Below are positions 41,391 through 63,707 of a DNA stretch of 63,707 nucleotides, piece after piece; the first letter of the stretch is position 1, and each line of letters opens with the position of its first letter. The stretch comes from Bacillota bacterium. GTDB taxonomy: Bacteria > Bacillota > Clostridia > Christensenellales > DTU072. Position numbers and translations under genes: made by a program. The notes under the pieces are model-generated. The model was not told the origin of the DNA. It was given only the letters and a program-made list of their open reading frames with translations, and did no database searches. The DNA is taken from the NCBI GenBank assembly GCA_009781445.1, contig WQYD01000005.1, positions 1 through 63,707 of the forward strand, read 5' to 3'.

Positions 41391-41597
41391 ATGGCAATAA
41401 CCAAGGATATGCTAATTATAGACGCATTAAAGCAAGGCAATGTGGAAGCAATGGCAGAAGTGCTTTACGGCTTCGGTATGCACTGCTTGGGTTGCAAGCT
41501 TGCAAGTGGCGAAACTCTTGAACAAGCCGCAGCCGTCCACGGCGTGGATATTGATTTAATGCTTGAAGCCTTAAACGAAGCAGCGAATTCTGTTTAG
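41391..41597 (+). CDS. DUF1858 small redox-disulfide domain protein
   Basis: ITKDM.I, GMHCLGC and ETLEQAAAVHG motifs; GAGGTG RBS. Confidence 0.88.
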   Translation: MAITKDMLIIDALKQGNVEAMAEVLYGFGMHCLGCKLASGETLEQAAAVHGVDIDLMLEALNEAANSV

Positions 41598-41767
41598 CAA
41601 AAGTTAGCCCTTTTCAAGACAAAACGAAACCACGAAATCGGTAGCTGCTAAAGAGTGTACGGCGCGATTCTGTTGCTATAGCTACAAAATTATGCACAAT
41701 ACACAGCGCACAGTGCGCGTCAGAGCAATTCCGCACAGAAAACACCAAATGTCAACCGCCAATCACC

Positions 41768-41797
41768 AAAAAACCCGCACTTCTGTGCGGTTTTTTT
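41768..41797 (+). terminator. Rho-independent terminator (bidirectional-looking)
   Basis: AAAAAAC-CCGCAC-TTCT-GTGCGG-TTTTTTT. Confidence 0.8.
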
Positions 41798-41867
41798 GTG
41801 AGGTATGAAAATATTTTTGGCACTTGTTAAAGAGTTTATGCTGTAATTTTGTTGCTATAGCAACGGA

Positions 41868-41972
41868 ATATCGCAAAGCGAGGCTTTGCGGTGATATTTT
41901 CCCTGCGGAAAAATGATATTGCTATGCAATGATATTCGCTACGCAAATGATATTTGCCTTATGGCAAGTGTA
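41868..41972. repeat. REP-like hairpin array separated by TGATATT
   Basis: Five short hairpins, each separated by TGATATT; mirrors the array at 12-103 (e.g. TTTTCCCTGCGGAAAA vs TTTTCCGCAGGAAAA). Confidence 0.65.
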
Positions 41973-41974
41973 TG

Positions 41975-42830
41975 ATAAATTTAGAATGCAGAATTAAGGA
42001 CGAAATTATAAAATATTAAATATGAAATATGAAATATAAGAACCTGCCTGTGGCAGAACCTTGGTGTCGCCTTGCAGGCTTAACTAAAAATATAAATTGA
42101 GGATTCTAAATCTCATTAAGAGTAATGACGACTTACAACTTACGATTTACGAATTATGGATTTAGTTATCATAACTCTAATCCCAAACAACTAATCATCA
42201 ATCTCAAACAATAATTCCATAATTTATATTTCATATTTCATATTTCATATTTCCACATTTCCATTTTTCACTCTTCTTTCCCCGTTTACTGCCCAGTTTG
42301 GCAAAAAATTTGTAGTAAATAAAAAGTCTTTTGTTGTTTTTGGTTAATGTATTGACGGATTTTTAAATTCATGTCAACATTGGTGTTTATTTGGTGTTGC
42401 TGGTATGTTAGCATGTTAGGTTAGCGTGCAGAGAGAGGGTTATTTTCAGTTTACTGCCTATTTTTGGCAGAAAATGTGCAGTAAACAAAAAAAGTTTTAA
42501 AACATTCAAAAAAGTATTTACAGCCGTGCGAAAAAGTGCGACAATTGAAGCGTGGGGTTATGCGCGCTACGCTTTCGCGTACGCGTAATAAAATAGTTGC
42601 GCATGGCGCATATAAAGGCGAGGGGCGAGAAAAATATAAAATATGAAATATAAAATATAAATTTCGGAATCTAAATATCATTATTGAGTAATCCGCAATT
42701 CTGAATTCTGAATTCTTAATTCTGAATTAATCCACAATTCGTACTTCGTACTTTGTACTTTGTACCTCGTACTTCAAAACGAAACACCAACCACCAATCA
42801 CCAAACACCAACAACTAACCACCTTATTAA
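41975..42830. repeat. Heptamer-repeat-rich region upstream of the giant gene
   Basis: AAATATG/ATTTCAT, TTACGA(C/T), AATTCTG, TTCGTAC and ACCA(A)C arrays; core motifs at 42101-42120 and 42666-42685. Confidence 0.8.
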
Positions 42831-42846
42831 AAAAGAGGAAACAGAC

Positions 42847-48800: not shown

Positions 48801-51800
48801 GGTTAGAGGATACTTTGCAGACGGTACATGGTACACGATTATGGACACGGCAACCGTTTCAAGCGGTGCTTTAAGCAGAACATTCCAATTCGCAATACCT
48901 CAAGATGCCATTGCCTCGCCTACAGTTGATTTGATTTTCGGCTTCAACGGCGATCCTTTCAACCTTGGCACTCAAACTATGAGTTTAACTTCCACATGGA
49001 CGCTTTCGGGCAAAATAGTTTCATTCACAGGAAACATTATCGGTAACTTAAATTCCACATATAGTTCCTTAGTTAGCTTAAATGCCGAACTTTCGGGAAG
49101 CTATCCAAGGGAAATTCTATTTGACGCACAAATTCACAACTTCGGAACAGCCCCCGCATTATCAGTGGGCAGAGAGGGTGCTACTCAAGCAGGCGTTAGC
49201 TTCCTTGGCGGTATTGTTAAAAACACCGGTGGCGGTTCGGCACTTCAAATTTCAGGTGTGTACAGATCAAATAACGGCTACCTCACGGCTATTTCGGATT
49301 CTACCGAACCCACGGTAACATTCTCAACCCACCGCCGTAGCTATGAAGTTCACGGCTTGCACGCCACAAACCTCGGCAGTGGCCCTGCCCTCGGTATCAC
49401 AGGCGTAATCGGTGAAAGGGGATTGGGCAACACCTCAGTTCATTACACCATTAGCGGTGAAAACACTGTTCTTCGTTCGGAAGGCGGTGCAGGCATTTTC
49501 TTTAGTGCTTTCCATGACGAAACGGCGGCGGTTGAAACCTCTTTCACAATGCTTGGCGGTACTGTTTCAGGGCTAACCGCAGGAATTCACATTACAGGAC
49601 ACACAAGTGTTCACCGTCCGCTTGAAGTTAACATTAACGGCGGAACAGTGTTCTCTAACAACGGAAACGCGGTGGTTATAGGGCAGTACGCAACACTAAC
49701 ATTTGCAGTGGAAAGAACGGATAAAGCAACTTCTGCGCCTGTTCTTTATTCAATAAGTGGCTACGCGCTTCACTTCACTAATTATTTAAGAGATATCTAT
49801 ATTGGCGAAGAAGCAACTGTTTACTCAATAAACAGCTATGCAATTATTACACAAGGGCATTTATACATTAATTCGTCAAACAGCGCGGAAATCCCCACCA
49901 AAATATATTCCGTGAACGGTGTAGCAATTGCGATTGATGGTTATAGCCTTTGGGGTTCTACAGTACATTTTGTAGATAACGGCGGTGAAATAGTTATTTT
50001 CTCTGAAGGGGGTTACGCAATAGCAGTTTCTGGTTCGGGCAATGTTAGAGGCTATGGAACTTCCACCCAAGTAACCATTTATTCAATCCCAAGCCATGCA
50101 ATTTATGTGTATGGTTTTGGCGGTATTCATTTGGATTCCATGAGGGCTTCTGTTTATATTTATTCAGAACTTGATATTCCAGTGTATTTACAAAGCACAT
50201 GGACTAACAGCCAATCTCATTTCCATGTAGCTAACCGCATTGTTAACTTTGCTGAGGATATGCCCTCTATTTATACCGCACAAAGTATTAACCTTGCGCA
50301 CGGTAGTGGCAACACTTCCCCTGTGGGTATTGAGGGGCATATTCTTCTTGATTATAGTGCCACAATTCAGCTAAGCAACTCTTCTGCGCCAAAAGGTGCT
50401 AACGAAACAGGCGAAGTTTCCGTGAGGCTTGCAGGCGAACCTAATGTTGATTGGGTTACGGGTGCAATTGTTGCAACAAATAGCGGACACGCTTCACAGC
50501 TTGCACTCTTTACTCATTACACTCTTGACGGTGAGGGTGATATTCAATTGCGCCGTGTTTCAAATAATATTGTGATTTACTTCGCAGGCGTTCCTGCTGA
50601 ACCGGGGTATAACGACTATATTATTTATAACAACACAAGCGGTGGCTTCACTCTTCTTGAGGGTGCCACAAATTGGCAGTTCTCAAACCATGATATGGAA
50701 AATATTATTTCCGCATTAGACTTCAGAACTCAGCATTTTGCCCAACAAACTGGCAATTATATGTTCACGCTTAGGTTCGGAAGGACGGATAGTGAATGGC
50801 TTAATATCGGCGATCAAACCGTGTTCTTTATAAACGGTATGTTGGGTTTCTACATGCTTGGCAATATCAGAGGCAGTTCAAGCGAAGGCGTGGTGGTATT
50901 TCACGGACATCTCTGGGGCTACAGTGGCGTGATAATAAGCTGTAACATAACAAGTGAAGGTAGTGGCTTAGCACTTGCTTCTAACGGTGCATGGCTTCAT
51001 TTTGCACGCGGTACAATTCAAAACACAGGCACAGGCGGTGCATACTCTGATAAATCGGGGCATTGGGACGGTATGTGGTGGGGTGGTTGGGAATATGCCC
51101 CCTATACCCATGTGGGTAGCAACTTGCCCGTATCCTTCCTATCAAATTCTGCCACAGTGCCTACCGTGTATATAAGTGGTTTGTTATACCTTTACGGCAA
51201 AAATGTAACAATTAAAAACACAGCTTTAGGCGGAACGGCACTTCATATGCAAGGCGGGGCGGACATTTCACTTGATTATTATAATAATCGCTATTACGGG
51301 AACGGAAGTTACGAAGATCAAATGTCAAGATTGTACAGTAACGGAATTTCCCCTTATATGTTCGCGATAATTGATAACGCAGTATCGGCAGAACTGCCCC
51401 ACGGTTTAATCCTTATTGAGGGTTGCACAGGAATTTTAATTCCTATTGGCGGGGATGTGCGCGTAATGGTTGGCGATCCAAGAAGGGTTTCGGGTTCAAT
51501 CACAATCAGAAGCAACGGCATTGGTTCAGCAGTTGAAAACCACGGCGTGTTCTTATTAAAAGATCCGAATGTGGTACCCCCTTCCATGGGCCCAAGAAAC
51601 TGGGGCGGTGGCGGTGAATACCAAGTGACGGACTTTAACCCTAATGTGCAAGTTCTTGTAACCTCTTCAGGGGATTACACGATATTTAGCACAGGGTATA
51701 TGCTAATTCCCGCATACTCTAATGTGCAGATTGTAAATTCAGGCACAGGCTATGCTATTTACGGCTGGGAACCCGATCCCGACTTTTATGACTACCATGG

Positions 51801-54800
51801 TAATTGGTATTGGTGGGGGAATTTGTATTATGAAGCCGGCATGATTGATATTTTTGCAGAATCAGTGGCATATACTCTCGGCTATGAAAACGATTACGGT
51901 GAATGGACAATTCTTTACTTAATTCAAGAGGTTACTTTAGGGCAAAACATTACGGGCAAAATTTCGGTATACGCGGAACATTTCCGTGCGCAACTATCAG
52001 ACGGCTGGGGCGGACATAGGGACGAACACGGCAATTGGACAAATCTTTACGCCCCTGCGCACTTCCCAAGTTCATTCCCTATCACTTTAAGCGGTGAATT
52101 CGGAATTGATTGGCATGAAGGTAGCAGAGTAATGTGGTGGGGTGCGCCTTACGCTAACGAAGTGTTGCTTACTAACAGAGGCTTTATTGCTTCCCCCGGG
52201 CGCAGTTATGAAGACATGGACGATCTTGTGGCAACAAGCTACATTCCTCTTGGTATTTACACAATAACCCAAAGCGGTAACTACTTTATGGTAATGGGCG
52301 AACGCTTGGGCGGTGCGCCTTACCTTGTGGCTTATGACGGTGATTTGAATTTTGCATTCGGCGAAATCCAATATGACGCAAGAAATCTAACTGAAATCAC
52401 AATTAACTTCGGCTTACTGGGTAGCCCCCTAAATATCGGCGCACGCGGTAATATCACCCTAAGCGGTGCATGGCCTAAAACTAACTTTGCAGGCACGCTT
52501 GACGCTTCCTTTAACGGATATTTATTTAGCTACGGTAGCGGTGTTAACATTGCAACCACTGCAAATATTGCTAACGCAAGCGGTGGCGTATTTAACCAAA
52601 CAGGCGGTAGCCTTTCCATAGAAGGCGGTAACATTACCGCAGTGGGCAGGGCAGTTAATGCCACAGGCGGAATGGTTTACATGAGTGGCAACCCTCAAAT
52701 CCAAGGCAGAATCAATGCAGGGATAGCAGGAATTGACGCTTCGGGATTAGTACCTACCACAACCCGCCTTTATGTGGTGGAATCCGAAAATGCAGTCCCC
52801 GGCAATGTTATGATAATTAACGGCGCGCAGTGGGCAAGAAACTTTGCTTTCGCAAGCAATGGTTACTTCTTTGCAGTTGGCACAGGCATACACGAAAACC
52901 ACCTTGTGGTATCCGATATTGCCACCAAACTTTATGCTTATGAAATCACTAAGAGTGGTAACACATATATCGCCACAGGCTACCGTTCAGACGGTGCAAG
53001 ATATGTGGTGGATAACGGCGTTGCGGATAGCGTGCAATCAGCGGTAGATGCCATTAAGGTAGACGCTGAGGGCAATAATCTATCAATCACATTTGTGGAT
53101 TTCAGCGAAGTGCTTGATATTAACACAAATCTCGTAACCTTAAATAACGCAATCGGCACATGGGGTACAATCACCCTTGCAGGCGCAATTATTAGCAATG
53201 TTAACGGCGGAAGTGATTCAGCGGTTATTATCATTGAAGACGGCGTAAGCGTTCAAAGTTTCCTTGATATCACTAACAGCGGTAACGCCTATGCCTTTAG
53301 AAATAACGGCGCAGGCACGCTAACAATCACAACCGGTAGCGTGCTTAACACAGGCACTGGAAGCGTTATCGGAAACTACGGCGGTGGCACGCTTGCTATC
53401 GGTGGCGGTACGGTTAATTCTTCCACAAAAGAGGCAATTATATCCACTGGCGGTATTGTGGATATCTTCGGCACAACTTCGCAAGTTGTCGGCAAAGGCG
53501 AAGCGGTACTTCTTGTGTCAAATACGGCTTTAAAACTTAACGGTGGCTTGGTTACCAATGCAAGCGGTGCAAATGATTATGCGGTTAAGTTAACTGATAA
53601 TCAGTCCTCTTTAACAATCGGCGGTAGCCCCAAATTGGTTGGCAATCTTGGTGCTTATCCCGAACAAATCACAGTTATAAATACCTTTAATCCCACTTCC
53701 GTTTATAGCGTTGTTCCTCAAGGTTCGTATCAAACGGATTGGAATGTTGGGGATATTTATGTGTTCGGCGGTGCTAACTTCTTGCTTAACTTCATGCTTG
53801 AAAACGAAGAAGGCTTAAGCCTTAATAAGCAAGGCAATAACCTTATCGTTTCCACAGAATCACCTGCTATTTACCGTTATAGAATTGTTAACGGTGTTTA
53901 TCCTCTTTACGAAGTTTATGGCTTCTATGCCAATAATCAAGAGTTCTTAATGAGTAATAGCCTTCCGGGTATTCCTGAGGCTTTAAACCTAATCAATTCA
54001 GACGCTAACGGTGCAAATGTGGAAATCATTTTCGGCAAAGGCGGTTCTGATATTCTTGATATGCGTGCGCCAAGCATTCAGTCACCTTTCAATGTGGCTT
54101 TCAATAACGATAACGGCGTTTGGGGCAACATTACACTTCTTGGTTCTGCATTTAAATATGCACGCCCTATAATTCTTGACGGTGTAACAGTGGTAAGCAG
54201 GGCAAACATTTCAAAGCATGAATATGACATGGGCGTGTTTGAATTGTTTGACGATGTTACCTTTACTATTGAAAGCGGTTTGTTAGAATCTTGGGCTGAT
54301 ATAGTGTATTTCTCAGGTTCAAGATCAACGCTTAATGTAACGGGCGGTGAATTAATATGCTATTCCGGTACTAACGGTTATGCTATCAATATGTCGTCCG
54401 TAGAATCGCACAACATTGTTAACATTTATGGCGAAAACACAAAAATTATCGGTGCAAGCGCAATTAGCATAAGTGGCGAAGGTTCAACCGTAAATGTTTA
54501 TGGCGGGGAACTAATCAGCAGAAGATTCTCTGTTATTGATCAAGGTTGCTATACTACCCTAAATGTTTATGACGGCAGTATTTTAGCTGAACACGGTTGG
54601 AACGGCGTACTTTGGGGCTGTTGCTATTCGGTAATAAACATTTACGGCGGACTACTTGAAAACCTAAACCCTGTTGATGACGATTATAATTACAACCCCA
54701 TTGTGGACGATATTCACTCAAGCATTTGGATGCAAGGTGCAGAGTTTAATATTTACGGCGGTACAATTAACGCGCTTGTTTATGCTAAGTATTGCCATTT

Positions 54801-57800
54801 TGGTTGGTGTTGTGACAGTGTGGACGCAATAGTAACCTTAGGCGGTACGCCCGAAGTTAACAGGACTATTATTCTTGTTAGCGGATCTGTGGCAAATGTG
54901 GTAACAAGCGGTGCTAACGCATTTAACCCCCAAGGCAATATTTACACATTAGAAGTTCGTGGCGGAAGAGCGGGCGATATCGTGGTTCTTAACGGTGCAA
55001 ACTTCTTAAGCCGTTTTAACCTTATTAAGAGTTCATTTACCCTTGAAGTTATCGGCAATAACATTGTTCTTTCAAATAGCGCACCCAAAACTTATGAGTA
55101 CACAATCGTGGAAGAAAATAGGGGCGGAAATATCGGCTTTGCAGTTTACGGCGAAAGGGTAAACGGTGCTATTTATGAAGTTATCTTCACAAGCGTTATT
55201 GCAGATGCTATTAACGCAATCCGTTCAGACGCCTCAGGCTTTGATTGCAATATCACCTTTGGCAAAGACGGCGAAACCTTGGATATTGGTTCGGCTTCGG
55301 CTGTATTCAGCAATGCGGGCATTAGCACATGGGGAACAATTTACCTCTTTGGTAGCTTATCCGCAGGCGTAACCTCTGCTAACTCTGCCACACTTCGCAT
55401 TGAAACAGACGCAGTTGTACTTTCTTGGGCAACCGTTGAATCTTACGCGGTGGGCAATGCAGTTCAGCATATGGGCGCGGATATTCTTTATATTCGCGGA
55501 ACTGTTATAAACAGCGCAGGCGGTAGATCAGCTGTAAATATGTCCTCAGGCACATTAGAGTTTGAAGAAGCGGTTGTTACCTCAAACGGTTCGTCTGCCA
55601 CTGTGGCAAACTTGGGTTCGGGCAGGCTTGTTATTGAAAACGGTAACCTAATTGAAAACACTGGCACAGGTTCAGCAGTCCAAGGTTCAGACACAGGCTT
55701 AATCTTCATGGATCGTATATCCACAATCCACGGTAACATTTCCGTGTTTGTTAACACGCTTCATGTTCGCGTATTCAACCCTGCTGTTAACGATAAATTC
55801 TATATTGATTTAAGAGGAAATCTTGGTGAAGATTTTGTAACTGGTGATAGCGTGGTTATCGGCGGTGCAAACTACTTTGATAACTTCTATTCCGCAAACC
55901 AAAGCAACTATTGGTTCGCACTTGGCGAAGGCGCAAAGATTAATGATATTGTTGTGGGCGGATATAAAACTTACGAATATATCATTTCTAATGTTGGCGC
56001 AGGTTCATATAAGGTTGAAAGCGCGCTTTCTAACGGTTCAAGATTCCAAATTGCTTTCGGGCTTTGCATTCAAGAATCTTTAATGACAATCCGCCACGAT
56101 GCCGAAAGCTACGATGTTAAAATAACATTTGAAAATGTGGATTTAGGCAATAGTTCCGTAACGATAAGTGATTATGATTTCATGGGCTACACTGGCACAT
56201 GGGGCGTGATTTCAATTTACGGTGATATCACTTCTGAGGGTTCAACCGCCACGGTTATCACGGAAGACGAAGTTATCGTTAAGAGTTTTGCAAACATTTC
56301 TAACACAAGTGATAACGGCAAAGCGGTTCTTCACGGCAGTGCGCAAATGCTTGCGATTGCAGGTGGTGAGATTAACGGCAGTGTTTCTGCTTTAATCACT
56401 GCGGGCATTCTTGCACTAACCAATACCCCTGTAATTAACGGCGATATTGCTGTGTTCAGTTCTCAGCTTGATGTTTCGGCTGTGGGCGCGTTTGTACCTC
56501 AATCAAATCAGTACACCGTTCACCTTCTTGGCAATTTCAGCACAGGAAGCGTGGCAGTTGCTGGCGCAGGAAACTTCTTAAGCAATTTCGTGCTTTCAGA
56601 TAGCTTAGCCGAAACTTATAGGATAGTAAGAGGCACAGGCACAAATAGTAACCACCTTGTTCTTGCAGGCTTTATTAGTGAAATCCATATCACTAATGTG
56701 GTAGCCCCTGTGGGCGGGCAAACGCCTAATTTCACTTCTGCATTACCCGCGCATTCTTCTTATAGCGTGGTAGAAACTTCTTGGGCGCCTGTGGCAGGTT
56801 CGTTTGGTTACGGCACTGTGTACACAGTCCGCGTAACGGTATCTGCAAGTGCTAACTATAGCTTTGCGGATATAATAGGCTTCGCCACAATTAACGGAAG
56901 CGTTGCCGAAGTTACATATAACTTAAACGGCACTATAACCTTAGCACTATCCTTTGCAAAAACCGCCTGCGCGCCTTGCGATTGCTGTGGTTTCCACTTC
57001 GGCGAACTTTGCGGTGAGGAAGATTGCGAATTTACCAAGGCTTGCAACTGCCGTTTCTGCGATTGTTGCGGTAAGTGCCAAAGGCATGCTGATCCTGAAG
57101 AGTGCTGTTGCGATAGGTGCTATTGCTATTTCTGCGCTTGCGGTGTTTGCTTAGAGTGCGATTGGTGCGAACATTCTTGCACGCATTGTGCAGACGAAGG
57201 CTGTTGCTGGTGCGATTGGGAAAATTGCGGTGTTTGCTATTGCTATCTTTACGGCGAAGAAGGCAACATTCGTTGCTGGGGTTGCACTGTTCATGATATA
57301 TTCTGCGAAAATTGTTGCGAGGCTTGCGAATGCACAACTTGTGATAATTGCAACGCATGGTGCTTATGCCCCTGCGGTGGTTGTTCAAAATGCGGTGATT
57401 GCACCTGCGATTGTGAGCATTGCGGTGATCAAGGCTGTTGCTGGTGCGAATGGGATATCTGCTATGGCTGTTATTGTTGCAGTATCTGCTTAATTCATGA
57501 ATCCTGCGATTGCGAGGTTTGTGGCTATTGCTGGCAGTGCGGTTGGTGCGGTTACGAATGTGATTGCCCCTGCAAACTTTGCGGATATGAGGGTTGTTGC
57601 GTATGCGATAGCGAAAATTGTAAAAGATTCCCCTGCCCCTGCCCTGATTGCGATCATTGCGGATTCCATGTGGATTGCTGTGGCTATTCAAGTTGCAGTT
57701 GCAGAGATTGCGGTTGCGAATTCTGCGGTTGCGGTGCTTGCTATCTGCATGACGAACCTTGCGATTGCGAATGTTGGAACTGCGGTGATATAGGCTGTTG

Positions 57801-60800
57801 CTATTGCGAGGATACTTGCTATGGCTGTTGGTGTTCTATTTGGGGCGAGGGCTTCCCTTGCAGTAATTGTTGCGTGCCACACGGGCTTTGCGATTGCGTT
57901 GCTTGTGGCGAATGTGGCGTGTGCCTTTGCGCTTGCGGTGCTTGCCCAAATTGTGACGGTTGCGAACATAATTGCCAATTCTGTGAAGACGAAGGCTGTT
58001 GCTGGTGCGAATATTGGTTATGCTATGGTTGCTGGTGCTGTGGCAATTGTGAAACGCACAAACCTTGCAAGTGCTATTGGTGCGGTTGCAACAACTGTAC
58101 TCAATGCCAAGAACACCACTTCTGTATTTGCGTGGTTTGCGGTTGCGGTATGTGTTCCTTCCATGACGGCGGTTGCGATTGCGAATGCAAGAACTGCGGT
58201 GATATATTCGGCGGTTGTTGCGTATGCGATCCCGATAATTGCTTCATTTATAGTTGCCCCTGCCCTGAGTGCCATTATTGCGTAGCACATAAGTCGGTAT
58301 GCCCCCCTGGGTATTGTAGCGGTGGCTGGTGCGAATGGTGCTGTGTTTACGGCGTGGGTAAACAAACCTGCGATTGCTGGTGGTGCAACACTTGCGGTGA
58401 ATGCGGTATACACGGTGATTGCCAAAGCTATAGGTGTGAGGACTGTTTCTGTCCTTCGGGTTGGATTTGTTCAAAAACGGGCAGTTGCTTCTGCGGATAT
58501 TGTGACGATTGCGAATGGTGTCTTTGCAGTTGCGAACACAGCGAATGCTATATAAATGAGTGCAGAGGTTGCTGTAAATGCGAATGGTGGAATTGTGGAC
58601 ATTGCTATTGCGGTACTTGCGGTTGTGCTAACCACACAAATGCAAAATGCGTTTGCACATATTGCCCTTGTTCACAGTGCGGGCGTTGCGAGGTTCACGA
58701 ATACTGCCGTTGCGTAGCTTGCTATTGCGGTAACTGCTTATTCCATGACGGTGACGATTGCGGTTGCGGTTGCAAACACTGTGCAGACGAAGGCTGTTGC
58801 GTATGCGAATCTGATTACTGCAAAATATATAAGGATTGCCCCTGCGGTTGCAATTACTGCTTTGTTCACCCGCCTTACTGCGGTTGTTGGGATTCCCCTC
58901 ATTGCAGTTGCAATAAAATTATAAACGGTTGCTGGTGCTGGTACTGCGCTTGCGGTGCTTGCATGGAATGTGATCCTTGCGAACACTGGTGCGATAATTG
59001 CGCAGATATAGGTTGCTGTTATTGCGAATCGTGGAACTGTATTTACTGCGATTATTATTACGATAATGAAAATTGCGTATGCTGTCCATGTGTTCACAAC
59101 GGGCATAATAATCAATGTGACGGCGAAAACAGGTGTTCCTTCCACTTCCCGCCTTGCGATTGTGAATTGTGTACTTTATGCGGTTTCTGCATTTGCGTAG
59201 TTTGTGGCGAATGTATGGATTGCGGTGATTGTTGCGGTGTCGGCTGTGTTCATTGCGAAGATAACGGCTGTTGCTTGTGCAGTGAGTGCAGTACATGGTG
59301 TTGGTGTTGCTATATTTGCGAAGCGCACCTTGGCGGTTGCATTTGCTATTACTGCGATTGTTGCGGTGTTTGCCTAAATTGCTTTGCGTGCAAGTGCGAA
59401 GTTTGCCGTTGCGGTTTGTGTGCATATCATGACGGCGGTTGTGATTGCGAATGCAAGAACTGCGGTCATTGGTACTTAGGCTGTTGCGTTTGCAAGCCTG
59501 AAACCTGCAAGAAAAAGACTGATTGCCCCTGCCCCGATTGCGATTGGTGCTATACTCACTTCCACCGTTATTGGTGCGGTTGCAACCCCAAGGATTGTCC
59601 TCACTACTGTTGCCCAGGGTGCGCTGAAGAACAAAATGTAATTTACGAATGTGAATGCTGGTTCTGCTTAGCCTGCGGTGCTTGTTGGGAACATGGCGGT
59701 TGCGAACACACTTGCCCTTATTGTGGCGATCAAGACGGTGGCTGTTGCCATTGTGATTGGGATAATTGCGATTGGTGTCCCTGTAGCTTCTGCTGGAATT
59801 GCACGGAACATGATAATCCGTGTGATTGCTGTTTCCCCTGCAAATGCACTATCTGCACAGATTGCTATAATGGTTGCTTATGCGCCTGCGGTGCTTGCCC
59901 CCATTGTGAGGGTTGCGAGGATTGTGACTGCGGGTACTGCGGTGACGAGGGCTGTTGCTTCTGCGACTATTTGAGGTGGGAATGCTATTACTGCGATTGC
60001 TGTAGCGTTTGCAGAGTTCACTCTAATATGCCTTGGAATCCCTGCAATTGCACTATCTGTGACGAATGCGATTACTGCACAGTTCACAGCTTCTGCCGTT
60101 GCTTCTGCGAACTCTGTGATAGCCAAGGCTGTTGCGAATGCCGTGATAGAGATTGCGATTGGTGCTGGTGCGAAAGGTGCGAAAAGTGCTATGTGCATGA
60201 CATCTCGTGCGTGTGCTGGTTCTGCTATAATTGCGGATATTGCATGGTTCATTTCCCGTGGTTCTGCTTCTGCGAATGCAATTTCTGTGACGGCAGTGGC
60301 TGTTGCGCATGCGATAGCGGAAATTGCCAAATCTATGATTGCGTCTGCGAAGATTGCAACCATTGCTTAACCCACGCTTGTTGCTGTTATAGCGAATATT
60401 GCGAATGTTGGTTCTGCGAACAATGCGGTGAATGCTTTATCCATGACGATTGCGGGCATTGCCAATATTGCGAAGGCGAGGGCTGTTGCTTATGCGAAAG
60501 CGAAAAATGCTTCCACTGCGCTTGCTATAATTCCTATCAATATAATGGCTGTGAAGCCTGTTCGTTCCACCAAATATGCTATTGCGAAACCTGCACGCTT
60601 TGTGATTTCTGCCTCTGCGAATGCGGTGCTTGCCTCAAATGCGGTGATTGCGAACATCGTTGCCCGAGGTGTCTTGATTTAGGCTGTTGCTTCTGTGATT
60701 TCTGGGCATGTAACCGTTGTTCTTGCTGTGACGGCTGTTTGAACCATGGTAGACCTCACCCCCACCCCTGCAACTGCGATTCCTGCGATTGCTGTGGCGG

Positions 60801-63707
60801 TTGCGTAAAGCACAAACAATGCACTTGCGAAGTCTGCCCTTGTTGCGATTCTTGCAAGCCCCATGTTTATTGGTGCAACTGCGATATTTGCGATAATTGT
60901 TCAACCTGCAATTACTGCGATTGGTGCGATTGCTGTAATCTCTGCGCTAATGAAGGTTGCTGTGAATGCGAACGCTGGCGGTGCAGGTGGACTTGCGATT
61001 GTTGCTGGTACTGCGCAAGGCACGATAAAGAACCCTGCGGTTGCGTCATGTGTTACGGTTGCTGGAATTGCCAATTGTGTGACGGCGCGTGTGATTGCCC
61101 CTGCAAAGGTTGTGGGGACGGTAGCGGTTGTTGCCTATGCGAATCAAAATATTGCTATTTCATTGATTGCCCCTGCCCAGAGTGCCACGCTTGCTTCTGG
61201 CATCATAATGGGTATAATGAGTATAACTTCGGCTGTTGGTGCTGGTTCTGCGTATCCTGCGGTGGTTGTGCGATAAGATCTCACATACTTGACTGCAATT
61301 GTGCCTGTGATCACTGCGAAGGCGAGGGCTGTTGCCACTGCGATCAATCTAACTGCAAACCCTGCAGTTGCGATTGGTGCAATGGCTGTAGAAATCACAA
61401 AGATTACTTCCCTGATTTTTATTACAAGGAATGCAAATGCGTTATCTGTGACGAATGCGATAATTGCGTTTGCCCTGCTTGCGGAGAGTGCTATAACGCG
61501 GGATTCTGCGATAGTTCCGCTTGTGAATGCGAATATTCTTGCAGACTTTGTAAGGACGAAGGTTGTTGCAAATGCAGTTGGTGGGATTGCGTTAAATGCC
61601 GTTGCAATCAAAGCCATTACACAAGCTACTGCAGGCACTGCATAACCCACAATGCTAACCCCTGCGATTGCGATAATAACATTTGCGATTGTTGCGGTGT
61701 TTGCACCATTCACATGATTTGCCCCTGCGAAGCGTGCGCGGATTGTGATTCCGAGTGCTTTAGGCATGACGGCTGTAAGTATTGCCCGTGTTGCGACACT
61801 TGCGCAAATGTGGGCTGTGCTTGCGAAATCTGCCCGTGTTGCACCGTTTGTCAAGTTGATAGTTCCTGCGATTGTAGCATTTGCAGGTGCGGTGCTTGCC
61901 TTACATGTTACGAATGCGAATGCTGTGAATATTGTGGTGGTGACGGTTGCTGTTGGTGCGATTGGGATAATTGCGATTATTGCAGGCGTTGCTGTTGGAA
62001 CTGTTCTACCCACGAAATGCCTGATTGCGGTTGCGTAGTGTGCGGTTGCTGGAATTGCGAACTTCATGACGGCGGTTGCGATTGCGAATGCAAAAATTGC
62101 GGTGATTATTGGAGAGGCTGTTGCGTATGCGATCCTGATAACTGTAGCATTTACATTTGCGCTTGCCCTGATTGCAATTGGTGTCACACCCACGATTGGA
62201 ATAGCTGTTATTGCTGGTACTGCGCTTGCGGTGCTTGCACAAGTTGCGACCCCTGCGAACATTGGTGCAGTTGCGGTGATATAGGCTGTTGCCACTGCGA
62301 AGGTGGCTGTTCGTACTGCCAATGCGGTTGGTGTTGGAGTTGTTCAAAGCACATGGGCGCTTGTGGCTGTTGCTTACCTTGCAATTGCGATATTTGCGAA
62401 GTTTGTGATTGGTGCTTATGCCCCTGCGGAGGTTGCCCAGGTTGCGGTACTTGCCCCCAAGATCATAAATGCTTTAACTGCGCAGACGATCCTAACGGCT
62501 GTTGCGCTTGCGATTGGGATAACTGCGATAGGTGCGCTTGCGATAAGTGCGAAAAATGCTTCTGCAAAGGTTGTCAGTTTAGGTGCAAGACTCATAGTGG
62601 CGAATGTTCTTGCGTTATATGCTACTGCGGTGTTTGCCAAACGCATGAAAGAGAATGCGTATGCAAATGTAAATTATGCGGAGATTGGGGCTGTTGCGTA
62701 TGCGAACCCCTTGAGTGCTTAGTATTCAATTGCCCCTGCGAGGAATGCCGTTACTGCAGACATCACCCCGATAACACACAGGGTTACTATGAAAGGTGCC
62801 GTTGCGAATTCTGCTGGATCTGCGGAGAATGTGCTTGGCACAACGGTTGCGAACACAAGGAAACTTGTATTTATTGCGGTGGCGAGGGCTGTTGTATTTC
62901 AGGTGTAAGGTGCGATTCCAGACCCTGCCGTTACTGCCCACCGGGTTGCCACAAATCGTGGGGGTACTACAATTGCAGAACTCACAATCCTAATATTAAT
63001 AGTTGCGATACTTGCGATTGGTGTCTTTGCACCGTTTGTGGCGGTTGCCAAAACTGCGGTACTTGTAACCACGAGTGCAAACACTGCGAAGACGAAGGCT
63101 GTTGCTTTTGCGCCGATTGGTGGGAATGCGATTATTGCCCATGCGTTGGGTGCAATGTTTGCCGTGCGCATGCTATAGATTACCATTATGTATTCTATGG
63201 CTACAAGATTGAATGCGAATGCACTTATTGCGCCTGTTGCTTAGCGCGTTGCGACTTCTGCGATAGCACGAGATATCGTTGTAGCACTCACTTCACCTGC
63301 GCTTGTATCACTTGCGCTTGCGGTGCTTGCACAGTTCACAATCCTTGCGAATGTCCGTGCAATGAATGCGGGGAAATCGGCTGTTGCGTTTGTGAAAGCG
63401 GTAACTGCGTAATCTGCAAATGCGATAACTGCACAACCCACAAATCCTGCGAATGCACCTGTGATTGCGAGGACGAAGAAACCTGTTGCGACTGCGATAG
63501 CGGAAACTGCGTAATCTGCGAATGCGATAACTGCACAACCCACGAATCCTGCGAATGCGGTTGCGATTGTGACGGTGACGAAACCTGTTGCGAATGTGAC
63601 GAAGTTAACTGCAAAGAATGCGTATGCTGTGAAGCCTGCGTAACTCACGAACCTTGTGATTGCCACTTCTGCGCTTGTGAAGCCTGCTTAGAGTGCGACG
63701 CTTGCGA
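42847..63707 (+). CDS. Giant (>=6953 aa, 3'-truncated) secreted/surface protein: ~11 beta-helix-like modules, an Ig-like domain and a >=2240-aa Cys-rich region
   Basis: AAGAGG RBS then ATG 42847 MRRFLAMNKNAITKVAIIALILAVITTIVLVSVPL. The frame is open wherever I translated it and ends CHFCACEACLECDAC at the window edge. The ORF track lists no ORF in this frame, as expected for a frame lacking a stop. Confidence 0.93.
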   Translation, partial: MRRFLAMNKNAITKVAIIALILAVITTIVLVSVPLGGRGSDSRLPSDHGNVILSPPIDNPLGKSYEYTIRKQGSTYIAESYYVSTGAYTVAQGLVLNNIMGAIREDADGADSEVLFGQGQTLNVGDDALRFFNNDFMIPWGTVTVSGTITGTGGNTAVVVVEVPNIIFNANATATGAGEAIRFASEGDLTIQSATIANSGSGTAIRNMGEGSLYAIASTLTSNGSAVVVNQLGTAVLDNSTVTNTGSAGFALNNSDIAVITEGSTVTSRGTVATVYSQYSAKLTVGAKSAVIASGIAKVENTGLGSAIQTLSTDSATQILASAQILNNSSFATIQYSGTATLLITGAKVANAGGGASINSTVEGGNITLGGLVQITGEIRIFPSQLGVDVSSTPSRFNPGSAVFNVCVNGTSPQDFGVGSKFVLNGSVFSNNFTLTNTGFIAGKGLGADSVHLVMLVANVETSDYYIVTKANDLYTVSGEYTPGGNRYSLANGITSAKASAELIKSSAGGRDVSIFFGWANLATAFGRDIFEISGSGWGEVTLLGNLAGMVQIGEAKDYNRDTWFSTVGVNVISYANIAYSSSDSPAIRLCVNSTLTILGGAVISSQGYAVGMDSGIDWDTGYNLSEASFLHINGASAVVDGVDGGTVLLEKGTIRYQVYYTYFTMTGGTLTNIEYTYLLEGSHISGGEITSATNGNSYVLFDGSYTISGGKITSHSDYAFRTGWDAYGGDLTAVIDNTGGNLVLDIKGKLLCYGYYEIFNIDTVVGDGIGGARDITLINSKIVANNGDGLRGDGGGFLRAEIINSHIEALYAGLYIDSLVGESIISDSTIISHSYYALAGFYSYGNDAFLTITNSTITSYDSIAVTLAIPFLIEDGTISAPSSGIAFQINDAPATVKNSTITGDIQIWNETSFFTLGGEIILNGSIVLVPQDVGGAGLALDDCFVPMQTYQLHLAGSYGVEYEPGALVVANGGTHISYFEASSIDPPSRVELALSMRPGFENDIVVEGADDSRGFDYIIRADGVFCADTNFRISANNLQEGLNAIRRDARGQSVNITIEGTAGINSWNPSPSATNTRRFENDGSSRWGTIHLYADSYHFTINTTNNYLNTLFVVGTGVHVVSYINASRIHGDQYETQTNNDDLIFDVLEGGRLTIAEGLLINKYADRHTNVIRLAENSTLKAEAIINGGDIFGGFIIGGGTLTMNAGDVSIFYSFSSSSSPQYAINNVHTAISIGSGGTLNIRGGYININQMTGYSVNLLAIGSGDSLASTDDDITISITGGTIDIRQQSTFARLTAIDAGRAGANILIRNAELNITQLCTSSGTATALITRTEATITFDNATIDINQNGASASSVGIASGTNGIFNITDSTVEMTDSTPRLINVQTNTLLTITGSEVLTVSTYQQVSTSYYVIQASNESIVTVIDSLIRSFSGNAIIAQGGSTIRLISGTVQSGTSASARSITDTSSASATNQATIEFNPKALEIKGIMKINSEKLFVIEVEGPDMGQMFLFHIEINGESFVDFSLGSIAVMEGEQYALRFRSSQGFSMAICPFSSAEFPGYGNLILGISLPEIELFYIIRHNTTSGDYRYDVFKTDEEGNEEQIVENKAMEYALADTRVDANGAVAELYFENVNTNIRIDLYNFYDEAWGPIVLRGQVYSTLSTDYTFKISENMQVYMDMDLTSSQSAGGAVQVAGTTALRSTLYIIDGTISYASSGTIIHARTSNVFIIGGRVERLANGSNTASGSVVDISDNTSQFYIEGEDTRIINHQNAGSAENTLATLRLGSTANAVFMGGRILSTGTVNTIYAQGATISLRGGQIINTAEGIAIYNASASVNISGGTISALGGYAYWGATSISYHNSLSGQLSMSGAPKFIGDFSVNSNLLSASTTLNLGNDIIKVYLRGNLADDWTLGTIVMRGGVAHMANFNFIFVNPASDAGSAYFFGAGLGSSANHVVVSHAKMGTQTYEYYYLQVTGGRSMVRGYFADGTWYTIMDTATVSSGALSRTFQFAIPQDAIASPTVDLIFGFNGDPFNLGTQTMSLTSTWTLSGKIVSFTGNIIGNLNSTYSSLVSLNAELSGSYPREILFDAQIHNFGTAPALSVGREGATQAGVSFLGGIVKNTGGGSALQISGVYRSNNGYLTAISDSTEPTVTFSTHRRSYEVHGLHATNLGSGPALGITGVIGERGLGNTSVHYTISGENTVLRSEGGAGIFFSAFHDETAAVETSFTMLGGTVSGLTAGIHITGHTSVHRPLEVNINGGTVFSNNGNAVVIGQYATLTFAVERTDKATSAPVLYSISGYALHFTNYLRDIYIGEEATVYSINSYAIITQGHLYINSSNSAEIPTKIYSVNGVAIAIDGYSLWGSTVHFVDNGGEIVIFSEGGYAIAVSGSGNVRGYGTSTQVTIYSIPSHAIYVYGFGGIHLDSMRASVYIYSELDIPVYLQSTWTNSQSHFHVANRIVNFAEDMPSIYTAQSINLAHGSGNTSPVGIEGHILLDYSATIQLSNSSAPKGANETGEVSVRLAGEPNVDWVTGAIVATNSGHASQLALFTHYTLDGEGDIQLRRVSNNIVIYFAGVPAEPGYNDYIIYNNTSGGFTLLEGATNWQFSNHDMENIISALDFRTQHFAQQTGNYMFTLRFGRTDSEWLNIGDQTVFFINGMLGFYMLGNIRGSSSEGVVVFHGHLWGYSGVIISCNITSEGSGLALASNGAWLHFARGTIQNTGTGGAYSDKSGHWDGMWWGGWEYAPYTHVGSNLPVSFLSNSATVPTVYISGLLYLYGKNVTIKNTALGGTALHMQGGADISLDYYNNRYYGNGSYEDQMSRLYSNGISPYMFAIIDNAVSAELPHGLILIEGCTGILIPIGGDVRVMVGDPRRVSGSITIRSNGIGSAVENHGVFLLKDPNVVPPSMGPRNWGGGGEYQVTDFNPNVQVLVTSSGDYTIFSTGYMLIPAYSNVQIVNSGTGYAIYGWEPDPDFYDYHGNWYWWGNLYYEAGMIDIFAESVAYTLGYENDYGEWTILYLIQEVTLGQNITGKISVYAEHFRAQLSDGWGGHRDEHGNWTNLYAPAHFPSSFPITLSGEFGIDWHEGSRVMWWGAPYANEVLLTNRGFIASPGRSYEDMDDLVATSYIPLGIYTITQSGNYFMVMGERLGGAPYLVAYDGDLNFAFGEIQYDARNLTEITINFGLLGSPLNIGARGNITLSGAWPKTNFAGTLDASFNGYLFSYGSGVNIATTANIANASGGVFNQTGGSLSIEGGNITAVGRAVNATGGMVYMSGNPQIQGRINAGIAGIDASGLVPTTTRLYVVESENAVPGNVMIINGAQWARNFAFASNGYFFAVGTGIHENHLVVSDIATKLYAYEITKSGNTYIATGYRSDGARYVVDNGVADSVQSAVDAIKVDAEGNNLSITFVDFSEVLDINTNLVTLNNAIGTWGTITLAGAIISNVNGGSDSAVIIIEDGVSVQSFLDITNSGNAYAFRNNGAGTLTITTGSVLNTGTGSVIGNYGGGTLAIGGGTVNSSTKEAIISTGGIVDIFGTTSQVVGKGEAVLLVSNTALKLNGGLVTNASGANDYAVKLTDNQSSLTIGGSPKLVGNLGAYPEQITVINTFNPTSVYSVVPQGSYQTDWNVGDIYVFGGANFLLNFMLENEEGLSLNKQGNNLIVSTESPAIYRYRIVNGVYPLYEVYGFYANNQEFLMSNSLPGIPEALNLINSDANGANVEIIFGKGGSDILDMRAPSIQSPFNVAFNNDNGVWGNITLLGSAFKYARPIILDGVTVVSRANISKHEYDMGVFELFDDVTFTIESGLLESWADIVYFSGSRSTLNVTGGELICYSGTNGYAINMSSVESHNIVNIYGENTKIIGASAISISGEGSTVNVYGGELISRRFSVIDQGCYTTLNVYDGSILAEHGWNGVLWGCCYSVINIYGGLLENLNPVDDDYNYNPIVDDIHSSIWMQGAEFNIYGGTINALVYAKYCHFGWCCDSVDAIVTLGGTPEVNRTIILVSGSVANVVTSGANAFNPQGNIYTLEVRGGRAGDIVVLNGANFLSRFNLIKSSFTLEVIGNNIVLSNSAPKTYEYTIVEENRGGNIGFAVYGERVNGAIYEVIFTSVIADAINAIRSDASGFDCNITFGKDGETLDIGSASAVFSNAGISTWGTIYLFGSLSAGVTSANSATLRIETDAVVLSWATVESYAVGNAVQHMGADILYIRGTVINSAGGRSAVNMSSGTLEFEEAVVTSNGSSATVANLGSGRLVIENGNLIENTGTGSAVQGSDTGLIFMDRISTIHGNISVFVNTLHVRVFNPAVNDKFYIDLRGNLGEDFVTGDSVVIGGANYFDNFYSANQSNYWFALGEGAKINDIVVGGYKTYEYIISNVGAGSYKVESALSNGSRFQIAFGLCIQESLMTIRHDAESYDVKITFENVDLGNSSVTISDYDFMGYTGTWGVISIYGDITSEGSTATVITEDEVIVKSFANISNTSDNGKAVLHGSAQMLAIAGGEINGSVSALITAGILALTNTPVINGDIAVFSSQLDVSAVGAFVPQSNQYTVHLLGNFSTGSVAVAGAGNFLSNFVLSDSLAETYRIVRGTGTNSNHLVLAGFISEIHITNVVAPVGGQTPNFTSALPAHSSYSVVETSWAPVAGSFGYGTVYTVRVTVSASANYSFADIIGFATINGSVAEVTYNLNGTITLALSFAKTACAPCDCCGFHFGELCGEEDCEFTKACNCRFCDCCGKCQRHADPEECCCDRCYCYFCACGVCLECDWCEHSCTHCADEGCCWCDWENCGVCYCYLYGEEGNIRCWGCTVHDIFCENCCEACECTTCDNCNAWCLCPCGGCSKCGDCTCDCEHCGDQGCCWCEWDICYGCYCCSICLIHESCDCEVCGYCWQCGWCGYECDCPCKLCGYEGCCVCDSENCKRFPCPCPDCDHCGFHVDCCGYSSCSCRDCGCEFCGCGACYLHDEPCDCECWNCGDIGCCYCEDTCYGCWCSIWGEGFPCSNCCVPHGLCDCVACGECGVCLCACGACPNCDGCEHNCQFCEDEGCCWCEYWLCYGCWCCGNCETHKPCKCYWCGCNNCTQCQEHHFCICVVCGCGMCSFHDGGCDCECKNCGDIFGGCCVCDPDNCFIYSCPCPECHYCVAHKSVCPPGYCSGGWCEWCCVYGVGKQTCDCWWCNTCGECGIHGDCQSYRCEDCFCPSGWICSKTGSCFCGYCDDCEWCLCSCEHSECYINECRGCCKCEWWNCGHCYCGTCGCANHTNAKCVCTYCPCSQCGRCEVHEYCRCVACYCGNCLFHDGDDCGCGCKHCADEGCCVCESDYCKIYKDCPCGCNYCFVHPPYCGCWDSPHCSCNKIINGCWCWYCACGACMECDPCEHWCDNCADIGCCYCESWNCIYCDYYYDNENCVCCPCVHNGHNNQCDGENRCSFHFPPCDCELCTLCGFCICVVCGECMDCGDCCGVGCVHCEDNGCCLCSECSTWCWCCYICEAHLGGCICYYCDCCGVCLNCFACKCEVCRCGLCAYHDGGCDCECKNCGHWYLGCCVCKPETCKKKTDCPCPDCDWCYTHFHRYWCGCNPKDCPHYCCPGCAEEQNVIYECECWFCLACGACWEHGGCEHTCPYCGDQDGGCCHCDWDNCDWCPCSFCWNCTEHDNPCDCCFPCKCTICTDCYNGCLCACGACPHCEGCEDCDCGYCGDEGCCFCDYLRWECYYCDCCSVCRVHSNMPWNPCNCTICDECDYCTVHSFCRCFCELCDSQGCCECRDRDCDWCWCERCEKCYVHDISCVCWFCYNCGYCMVHFPWFCFCECNFCDGSGCCACDSGNCQIYDCVCEDCNHCLTHACCCYSEYCECWFCEQCGECFIHDDCGHCQYCEGEGCCLCESEKCFHCACYNSYQYNGCEACSFHQICYCETCTLCDFCLCECGACLKCGDCEHRCPRCLDLGCCFCDFWACNRCSCCDGCLNHGRPHPHPCNCDSCDCCGGCVKHKQCTCEVCPCCDSCKPHVYWCNCDICDNCSTCNYCDWCDCCNLCANEGCCECERWRCRWTCDCCWYCARHDKEPCGCVMCYGCWNCQLCDGACDCPCKGCGDGSGCCLCESKYCYFIDCPCPECHACFWHHNGYNEYNFGCWCWFCVSCGGCAIRSHILDCNCACDHCEGEGCCHCDQSNCKPCSCDWCNGCRNHKDYFPDFYYKECKCVICDECDNCVCPACGECYNAGFCDSSACECEYSCRLCKDEGCCKCSWWDCVKCRCNQSHYTSYCRHCITHNANPCDCDNNICDCCGVCTIHMICPCEACADCDSECFRHDGCKYCPCCDTCANVGCACEICPCCTVCQVDSSCDCSICRCGACLTCYECECCEYCGGDGCCWCDWDNCDYCRRCCWNCSTHEMPDCGCVVCGCWNCELHDGGCDCECKNCGDYWRGCCVCDPDNCSIYICACPDCNWCHTHDWNSCYCWYCACGACTSCDPCEHWCSCGDIGCCHCEGGCSYCQCGWCWSCSKHMGACGCCLPCNCDICEVCDWCLCPCGGCPGCGTCPQDHKCFNCADDPNGCCACDWDNCDRCACDKCEKCFCKGCQFRCKTHSGECSCVICYCGVCQTHERECVCKCKLCGDWGCCVCEPLECLVFNCPCEECRYCRHHPDNTQGYYERCRCEFCWICGECAWHNGCEHKETCIYCGGEGCCISGVRCDSRPCRYCPPGCHKSWGYYNCRTHNPNINSCDTCDWCLCTVCGGCQNCGTCNHECKHCEDEGCCFCADWWECDYCPCVGCNVCRAHAIDYHYVFYGYKIECECTYCACCLARCDFCDSTRYRCSTHFTCACITCACGACTVHNPCECPCNECGEIGCCVCESGNCVICKCDNCTTHKSCECTCDCEDEETCCDCDSGNCVICECDNCTTHESCECGCDCDGDETCCECDEVNCKECVCCEACVTHEPCDCHFCACEACLECDAC
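56968..63707 (+). repeat. Degenerate Cys-rich coding repeat array within the giant ORF
   Basis: GGC/GGT-TGT-TGC (GCC) anchor recurs about every 170-280 nt; TGC/TGT-rich periodic sequence. Confidence 0.9.

Follow-up and report, generated by a model that had tools for sequence, protein, structure and literature searches.

Metallothioneins are defined as small proteins with one or a few domains, and those of bacteria include His among their conserved ligand positions (both from parts of PMC10612145). In Giardia, variant-specific surface proteins (VSPs) contain frequent CXXC motifs, among them CxxCxxxCxxC, and a sub-stoichiometric binding of Zn is documented for them, while the high-cysteine membrane proteins contain CXC motifs (parts of PMC2996952). 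For exported proteins of aerobic Firmicutes, exclusion of cysteine has been reported (part of PMC2823432). In this study, we analyzed a stretch of DNA of 63,707 nucleotides (contig WQYD01000005.1 of assembly GCA_009781445.1, hereafter named the window), whose 3' end encodes an array of cysteine-rich repeat units within a giant predicted surface protein. It comes from a Christensenellales-like member of the Clostridia that lives in the termite gut and is uncultured. We favour, tentatively and at a little less than an even chance, the view that these units are Sec-exported mini-domains without a hydrophobic core, which would be held by metal ions and form a stiff linker or stalk.

By composition and motif spacing, the closest described proteins are the metallothioneins, including the SmtA/BmtA type. 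The array shares with them a Cys content of about 30%, the CxC, CxxC and CC spacings and the lack of a hydrophobic core (18% identity outside the ligand columns), and it has His at conserved ligand positions like the bacterial members. Membership nevertheless fails on size and on family models: the array comprises at least 2,246 amino acids (aa) inside an exported protein of at least 6,953 aa, 11% of its residues are W, Y or F, and it has no Pfam or NCBIfam match. The closest analogue by biology is the Cys-rich surface coat of Giardia. VSPs and high-cysteine membrane proteins have in common with our protein a Cys-rich surface in a gut anaerobe, a signal peptide, many CXXC motifs besides CXC ones, and tandem repeats, as well as a C-terminal anchor that is found in its paralogues, and the VSP motif CxxCxxxCxxC (part of PMC2996952) resembles a 12-mer, CxxCxxxCxxH, of the same genome. 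However, VSPs are eukaryotic, end in a conserved transmembrane segment and CRGKA tail (the C-terminus of our protein lies beyond the contig) and have no sequence similarity to the array (Pfam). The array is the tail or linker of a modular bacterial protein. The Cys density of Giardia surface proteins, about 11-12%, also lies far below that of the array.

Gram-positive linkers and stalks (Pro/Thr-rich scaffoldin linkers, X2 modules and adhesin repeats) occupy the same position in their proteins as the Cys-rich segments encoded on contigs C13, C19, C36, C37, C38 and C1 of this genome, although the chemistry differs entirely, that of the array being based on Cys and His. In Zn3Cys9-type CXC/pre-SET domains, CxC-rich motifs form multinuclear Zn clusters, and the antifreeze beta-helix is made of disulfide-bonded, 12-residue coils containing Cys; the likeness to both is by motif only, with no Pfam or PDB sequence match. 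Three further candidates were rejected, namely a multihaem c-type cytochrome (only three CxxCH motifs and no cytochrome family match), a ferredoxin-like Fe-S polyprotein (no Fer4-type or other Pfam match, no TatA or TatC) and known disulfide-rich repeats such as EGF, granulin, furin-like and Myxococcus Cys-rich repeats (no Pfam match and no disulfide-forming system found). As a class, the array is best placed with the modular stalks and linkers of surface proteins, among which it would be an unusually extreme, Cys-rich and probably metal-stabilised case.

Composition and repeat units of the array

An initial annotation of the window, made from the letters alone, had described a region of at least 2,240 residues that is about one third Cys, and the translation gave 2,246 residues with 29.9% Cys. 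The hand counts of that annotation were exact (51 Cys in 160 codons at 57001-57480, and 27 in 80 at 61681-61920); its extrapolation to about 700 Cys was of the right order, the assembled region holding 672. Cys rises from 0-3 per bin of 100 residues before residue 4701 of the open reading frame (ORF) to 25-35 from residue 4801 (nt 57160) on. For comparison, the genome average is 1.55% in ORFs of at least 150 aa, and this single giant ORF carries 691 of the 9,112 cysteines of the genome's long ORFs. The remainder was correctly described as rich in D, E, G, H, W and Y: G accounts for 8.5% of the array, D for 7.7%, E for 7.0%, Y and N for 4.6% each, H for 4.4% and W for 3.5%. There are 243 aromatic residues, W and Y together making up 8%, and acidic residues prevail over basic ones (330 D+E vs 110 K+R). 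The cysteines are closely spaced, since 496 of the 671 Cys-Cys gaps (74%) are of 0-2 residues, comprising 63 CC, 185 CxC and 248 CxxC. Counted as motifs, CxxC occurs 300 times in the 2,246 aa and CxxCxxH 46 times, against only three CxxCH; the four CxxCxxH strings singled out in the initial annotation (CWGCTVH, CGECGIH, CGRCEVH and CGNCLFH) all lie where it had placed them.

The GCC motif is present at each of the seven positions cited in the initial annotation; its strict form (CxxC-x-D type) occurs seven times, and a looser form, CxxC-x(2-6)-CC-x-C, 25-26 times in the array. A hidden Markov model (HMM) of the unit was built from the GCC anchors and found 30 units at i-E<1e-5 among 44 envelopes, in agreement with the roughly 30 units first estimated; this count is partly circular, since 25 of the units found were seeds of the model. 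In an independent search run, 28 unit matches were obtained in the giant ORF and six in a second gene. The unit is of about 57 aa, with the consensus xxxxCxCxxCxCGxCxx[C/H]xxxCx[C/H]xCxxCxDxGCCxC[D/E]xxNCxxCxCxxCxxCxxH. Units had been thought to span 55-90 aa, which did not hold: most are of 50-65 aa, and the spacings appear larger in places because degenerate units lie inside them.

Alignment of 30 units defined 19 ligand columns, of which 16 are Cys (most of them in 30/30 units), two are mixed Cys/His (17:12 and 16:14) and one is His (26/30). All 19 positions are filled in 18 of the 30 units, and the acidic residue after CCxC is kept in 28. Outside these columns the units have diverged widely. 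Among the 26 units aligned in the window, mean pairwise identity is 55% at the nucleotide level and 44% at the amino acid level, and falls to 18% outside the ligand columns, while all 12 fully conserved Cys columns examined use both TGT and TGC. The low off-column identity and the mixed TGT/TGC usage therefore show that the unit duplications are old and that selection acts on the cysteines and histidines themselves. One subtype of the unit, beginning with HDGGCDCECKNCG, recurs every 190-330 aa and gives a loose super-repeat. Younger tandem units of 34 aa near the contig end contain 11 Cys and one His each (hand count on the translation). Of note, the two codons of the invariant CC doublet differ: the first Cys is TGT in 23/26 units and the second TGC in 22/26, TGC being otherwise preferred (497:175). 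Such a bias may arise because TGCTGC is avoided, or from a constraint on translation or slippage.

A genuine bacterial gene encoding a giant, probably exported protein

The window is the entire contig C5 of a metagenome-assembled genome (MAG) of 1.89 Mb in 98 contigs, rated 93% complete and 0.35% contaminated. The ORF at 42760..63705 (+) has 6,982 codons and zero stops, and its 3' end is open at the contig edge. ATG 42847 is the likely start codon, which gives a protein of at least 6,953 residues; a public protein record (P0002) begins at the same ATG and is identical over 6953/6953 residues. Between the N-terminal hydrophobic segment and the Cys array, hydropathy revealed no further true transmembrane segments. 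The long passenger that fills this interval has what we infer to be a beta-solenoid-like look. It had no Pfam match better than E 0.09 and no match in the PDB sequence search, and among proteins of 3,824-12,168 aa it found only itself. In all, 19 Cys are present in the first 4,752 residues of the ORF, ahead of the array. The domain directly before the array has a counterpart in a paralogue encoded on contig C1, where weak Ig-like and ZirU matches (residues 790-905 and 819-904, at or below the curated cut-offs) start just after the aligned region and overlap it only at residues 790-807; no Pfam match was found in the 223 residues that precede the Cys region in the window's own protein.

Eukaryotic contamination or a chimeric assembly had been named as what would undo the initial annotation, and several observations bear on this. 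The frame is continuous over 20.9 kb, whereas the five other frames of the Cys region have 28-181 stops each. An independently assembled Logan contig of 16,763 nt spans 54000-59466 with zero differences; as it comes from a different assembler, the transition at 56968 was not introduced when the MAG was assembled. The same unit also occurs in the complete bacterial ORF on C1, selection is visible at the amino acid level beside synonymous TGT/TGC variation, and the choice of Cys, Asp and Glu codons in the giant gene is that of the housekeeping genes of the window. An artefact of whatever kind, be it an assembly chimera, eukaryotic contamination or an open non-coding repeat, is scarcely credible against this evidence, even though the contig ends in a collapsed repeat inside the region, the overall correlation of relative synonymous codon usage with housekeeping genes is only 0.46, as goes with an odd composition, and the two public sequencing runs that hold the stretch may be the assembly's own sources. 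In practical terms, we consider a chimera or eukaryotic contamination to be excluded.

The gene extends past the contig end. The single-copy loose end at 63573-63707 goes on in frame with more Cys codons, and the full array is probably longer by several hundred residues; the ratio of word depths points to some 13-16 additional copies of the collapsed 34-aa repeat. A copy of the contig-end repeat with at least 95% identity was not found elsewhere in the assembly, nor was a 3' continuation of the giant gene on the other contigs of the MAG.

Further cysteine-rich arrays in the same genome

The paralogue on contig C1 is encoded by a complete ORF of 2,147 codons and contains six units with a clean period of 54 aa (E 1e-26 among 19,025 six-frame ORFs). 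A cohesin-like module stands on one side of these units, and a Dockerin_1 domain (35.9 bits vs a cut-off of 22.9) and a C-terminal hydrophobic tail on the other. The cohesin-like modules of this genome scored only 17-21 bits vs a cut-off of 24.1, with four of five modules at E<=0.1, and the profile of the module on contig C36 had as its sole PDB match the cohesin of an anchoring scaffoldin (4ums, E 0.027). Neither dockerin nor cohesin was found by Pfam in the window protein itself.

A second format of Cys array, built on the 12-mer C-x2-C-x3-C-x2-H-x with three Cys and one His per copy, is present on four other contigs. On C13 it forms 20 perfect consecutive copies, and none of the 16 ligand columns varies among five 48-aa blocks. 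The 57-mer and 12-mer repeats are not related as far as profile comparison shows (hhalign, probability 0.3%). The Cys arrays on C13, C19 and C38 start at the lipobox Cys. On C37, about 90 aa separate the end of the array from a C-terminal transmembrane segment, a sub-threshold CBM_X2 match lying between the two, and on C36 three arrays alternate with cohesin-like modules (sub-threshold Cohesin matches). The C-termini on C1 and C37 consist of a hydrophobic segment and a basic tail, with no CRGKA. Placed beside anchors or between modules, the arrays therefore sit where Gram-positive surface proteins have their linkers and stalks. C36 and C37 both leave their contig ends within the 12-mer repeat, and probably represent one gene. 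Beyond its own genome the 12-mer was not found in the other 80 family genomes, or in the 300 order, 399 scored class and 400 phylum genomes sampled.

At least three more Cys-repeat formats were also seen. In the protein at C38:15163-17064, the lipobox is followed by an N-terminal repeat of about 17 aa, and the C-terminal part contains a CGEL-W-DC repeat of about 24 aa that lacks His. A C-terminal CxxCG-type block is encoded at C7:2-7090 and a short Cys patch at C69:2-802. Cys-rich segments seem to be a general feature of the surface proteins of this lineage.

Searches for relatives

No described repeat matched the units: searches with the 2,246-aa region were empty both in Pfam (E<=1) and in NCBIfam (E<=0.1). 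The genome search with a unit HMM that the initial annotation had in view was carried out, and brought no outside members: among 81 family genomes, only that of the window contained the unit, and among 41 relatives searched with a 600-aa piece of the Cys region, it was again the only one with a match. Against 1,835,955,588 representative proteins, the unit profile had a single match, the protein of the window itself, which has no other member in its 90% cluster. This search missed the paralogue on C1, which is present in the parent collection and is found locally at E 1e-26; members behind 50%-identity cluster representatives may therefore escape, and "no relatives" here means none found. A single-sequence search with a 930-aa Cys piece gave 211 candidates (511-1,628 aa in length), none at E<=0.001. 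The same type of search with the 12-mer protein of C13 gave 2,051 candidates and no match, which says little, the exact C13 sequence being absent from that collection; composition-bias filters may suppress matches in both.

Searched against contigs, the whole Cys region gave one stretch in genomes and three in metagenomes, none of them a relative. Seven metagenome stretches from a scan with the back-translated motif were rejected (0/7 match the unit HMM, best E 0.93) as unrelated short Cys-rich ORFs or chance, and the same scan of viral contigs gave zero stretches. One metagenome stretch, L101:204-497 (+), encodes a 98-aa ORF with an N-terminal hydrophobic segment and a tail that is nearly all Cys and Glu, without a match to the unit HMM. 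Profile searches of the PDB gave FYVE, PHD and defensin-like matches at E 0.37-4.6, which are non-significant and not evidence either way. No such bacterial protein and no description of the 12-mer motif came up in a literature search conducted mostly at the level of listings. By every sequence test applied, the domain family appears new.

Metal ions, disulfides and other explanations

The array very probably is a real extracytoplasmic protein region. That it is ligated by metal is predicted at somewhat better than an even chance, and a primary role as spacer or stalk is evenly poised. Because no Tat components were found (TatA and TatC were both absent from the 93%-complete genome), the giant surface protein would be exported via Sec as an unfolded chain, with the array as its distal, incomplete part, and whatever holds the fold would therefore be acquired outside the cell. 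The unit of about 57 aa, lacking a hydrophobic core, would then have its fold fixed by extracellular metal ions. Zn2+ is the most likely, as a default guess, given its spontaneous loading and lack of redox activity; Fe2+, Ni2+ or Co2+ are possible. In each unit, 16-18 Cys and 1-3 His would serve as ligands, perhaps together with one conserved acidic residue. With the acidic residue counted, this would make 20 ligands and about five sites per unit, or about 190 sites in the assembled part (arithmetic only). Tandem units would form a stiff, strongly anionic and protease-resistant rod, which may hold the passenger of about 4,600 aa off the wall or anchor as Pro/Thr-rich linkers or stalk repeats do. 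As the C-terminus of the giant protein is missing, the spacer reading rests on the paralogues; the idea of a stalk, already raised in the initial annotation, gains support from the positions of the sister arrays in proteins of the same genome.

The initial annotation had left the choice between metal-thiolate modules and a disulfide-crosslinked coat open. In the latter case, the exported cysteines would oxidise to intra- or inter-unit, perhaps intermolecular, disulfide ladders, of the kind known from granulins or the insect antifreeze beta-helix, and yield a tough crosslinked stalk or coat. The very high Cys content and the CC doublets would fit such knotted repeats, as would the 18% off-column identity, which disulfide-rich mini-domains also show, and the weak defensin-like PDB profile matches, although these are non-significant (E 0.65-4.5). 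The runs with host DNA are moreover labelled termite gut, the periphery of which is micro-oxic. However, the sequence leans to metal ligation over pure disulfides, because Cys and His interchange in two columns, a third column is a conserved His, Cys counts are odd in 19/30 units, the sister 12-mers combine three Cys with an invariant His, the gaps are short and Dsb is lacking. In the two mixed columns, exactly one His is present in 20/29 units ((C,H) 11, (H,C) 9, (C,C) 6, (H,H) 3), a pattern that is suggestive only (Fisher p=0.06), the units being kin. The many gaps of 0-2 residues would be awkward for structural disulfides. None of DsbA, Thioredoxin_4, DsbB and VKOR (PF01323, PF13462, PF02600, PF07884) was found in the 93%-complete genome, so that, with Tat also lacking, there is no known route for catalysed disulfides or for the export of pre-loaded cofactors. 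We consider an all-disulfide array unlikely. As to the companion genes envisaged in the initial annotation, no Dsb-like gene was found, there is no extra tRNA-Cys (one of 39 tRNAs), and only a single cysK and a single cysE scored above the family cut-offs.

The same residues could serve other ends. As an extracellular giant metallothionein, the array would sequester or buffer Zn, Cd, Cu, Fe, Ni or sulfide at the surface, its role as a spacing element being incidental. Its Cys density and CxC/CxxC/CC spacing, and about 190 potential sites per molecule by inference, speak for this, and His likewise serves in the metallothioneins of bacteria, which contain more hydrophobic residues than those of animals (part of PMC10612145). 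This is distinctly unlikely, given that the region lies inside a modular adhesin- or scaffoldin-like protein with sister arrays at linker positions, no metal-responsive regulator or transporter stands beside the gene, Pfam gives no metallothionein match and 243 residues are aromatic. Very unlikely is a redox-active surface, whose thiols would scavenge O2, H2O2 or lignin-derived quinones, or in which electrons would cross the envelope along an Fe/Ni-thiolate chain containing Trp and Tyr. The dense ligands, the share of W and Y and an anaerobic host, judging by the ferredoxin-oxidoreductase genes of the window, would suit it, and Fe(Cys)4 sites of the rubredoxin type are able to form by themselves from Fe2+; against it, there is no sign of redox cofactors, with only three CxxCH motifs, no Fe-S or cytochrome family match and no respiratory partner genes nearby. 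Going further, we see a slender chance that the array is a functionally active extracellular biopolymer of a sort not known before. It would be the scaffold for a continuous, self-assembling chain with 150-250 or more centres of the metal-thiolate/imidazole type, placed at every 11-12 residues or so, and would act across and beyond the wall as a redox wire or as a buffer of oxygen, quinones or metal; the lineage would have evolved it in several formats (57-mer, 34-mer, 12-mer and others). It is highly improbable that the array is a substrate of post-translational modification, carrying radical-SAM thioether crosslinks as in ranthipeptides, or S-glycosylation. Its Cys are flanked by D, E, N and T, as in some thioether precursor peptides, but no radical-SAM or maturase family matched in the 30 window ORFs scanned, more than 670 Cys would be an implausible scale, and the conservation of His would stay unexplained.

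Several points weigh against metal-held units in a stalk. Nineteen ligand columns are not a multiple of four, and a fifth site would need an acidic ligand or bridging thiolates. The thiolate-metal form would have an extreme anionic charge. No metal-handling gene lies near the giant gene among the window ORFs scanned. The absence of Dsb and Tat was established in a 93%-complete MAG only, and non-enzymatic disulfides are possible at the micro-oxic gut periphery. The weak PDB profile matches are of both kinds, zinc fingers and disulfide-bonded defensin-like proteins. With the C-terminus of the protein lying beyond the contig, the array seen here may be a far end and not wall-proximal. Evidence of protein or RNA expression was not found, and the sequencing runs listed for the stretch include no RNA datasets.

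Features and genomic context

The positions of the features are collected in Table 1.

Table 1. Positions of features of the giant gene and its Cys array in the window, and of the 12-mer arrays in the same genome (G000)
Feature	Position	Strand	Basis
Shine-Dalgarno-like AGAGGA, 7 nt 5' of ATG 42847	42834..42849	+	Sequence reading; public record P0002 has the same start
Hydrophobic segment after basic n-region, Sec signal or signal anchor	42874..42930	+	Kyte-Doolittle 19-residue window 2.14, ORF residues 55-73
Cys-poor passenger, ~4,580 aa, about ten divergent modules rich in G/S/T/N/I	42931..56673	+	Composition
Domain directly before the Cys region	56674..56964	+	BLASTP, 39% identity over 104 aligned residues, E 9e-8, to C1 ORF residues 706-807
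Cys-rich array, 2,246 aa, 672 Cys (29.9%), 98 His, ~30 units, ends with the contig	56968..63705	+	Translation counts, HMM
26 aligned window units	57106..63441	+	Alignment A3
Starts of units 1-13	57106, 57337, 57493, 57700, 57901, 58111, 58693, 58924, 59377, 59638, 59872, 60034, 60196	+	
Starts of units 14-26	60388, 60580, 60871, 61027, 61222, 61855, 62017, 62200, 62392, 62593, 62791, 63001, 63286	+	
Example of the HDGGCDCECKNCG...GCCVCDPDNC...CPCPxC unit subtype	58111..58293	+	Alignments A1, A4
Starts of other HDGGCDCECKNCG-subtype units	57493, 58693, 59377, 60196, 61027, 62017, 62593	+	
Younger tandem units of 102 nt (34 aa)	63381..63593	+	Tandem Repeats Finder: period 102, 2.1 copies, 85% matches
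Collapsed repeat at the contig end	63573..63707	+	Word depth 137-165 vs 8.6-10.5 upstream; joint "goes back 135"
Locus with 12-mer array, contig C13	C13:26956-28770		
Locus with 12-mer array, contig C19	C19:9345-10382		
Locus with 12-mer arrays, contig C36	C36:3-4250	-	
Locus with 12-mer array, contig C37	C37:16915-18249	-	

The other genes of the contig are ordinary bacterial ones, involved in glycogen metabolism, exopolysaccharide synthesis (a cluster) and histidine biosynthesis (an operon), or encoding a hybrid sensor kinase, glutamate dehydrogenase, FloA, NfeD and subunits of 2-oxoacid:ferredoxin oxidoreductase. The closest relatives of FloA (76-84% identity) are encoded in animal-gut and digester MAGs that bear the titles Clostridia or Christensenella. 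Two public sequencing runs hold the stretch, both labelled termite gut metagenome. Heading the histidine operon, a single ORF at 22988-24625 (+) combines a histidyl-tRNA-synthetase-like (HisZ-type) domain with HisG. No Rfam families were found in the window.

Upstream of the giant gene, 1.5 kb (41275-42846) lack an ORF of at least 100 aa and contain 11 terminator-like hairpins vs 1.7 expected and 13 promoter-like sites vs 5.9 expected. Short direct repeats of the GTACTT type (about 42740-42775) and a CA-rich leader (about 42780-42825) lie just 5' of the start of the gene. An ORF of 91 aa with a single CxxC is found at 41322-41597 (+), between a PP-loop ATPase gene and the giant gene. At the scale of the MAG, there are 22 stop-to-stop ORFs of at least 1,500 aa, the largest of 6,998 and 6,742 aa, with a sum of 66,733 codons, or about 10.6% of the assembly.

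Implications for surface proteins of gut Clostridia

A content of at least 672 Cys in one exported protein is very unusual for this bacterial group. If the units are metal-held beads, they would represent a new way to build long, stiff and protease-resistant stalks or scaffoldin linkers in an anaerobic, protease-rich gut. With about 190 inferred sites, the array would then be the largest metal-thiolate polypeptide known to us. The short units without a core (about 57 aa, or 12 aa in the sister repeat), defined almost only by their ligands, are possible modular blocks for metal binding or nanomaterials. Several further Cys-repeat formats are present at linker positions in one 1.9-Mb genome, and the lineage-specific giant surface proteins of uncultured gut Clostridia lie far outside current family databases.

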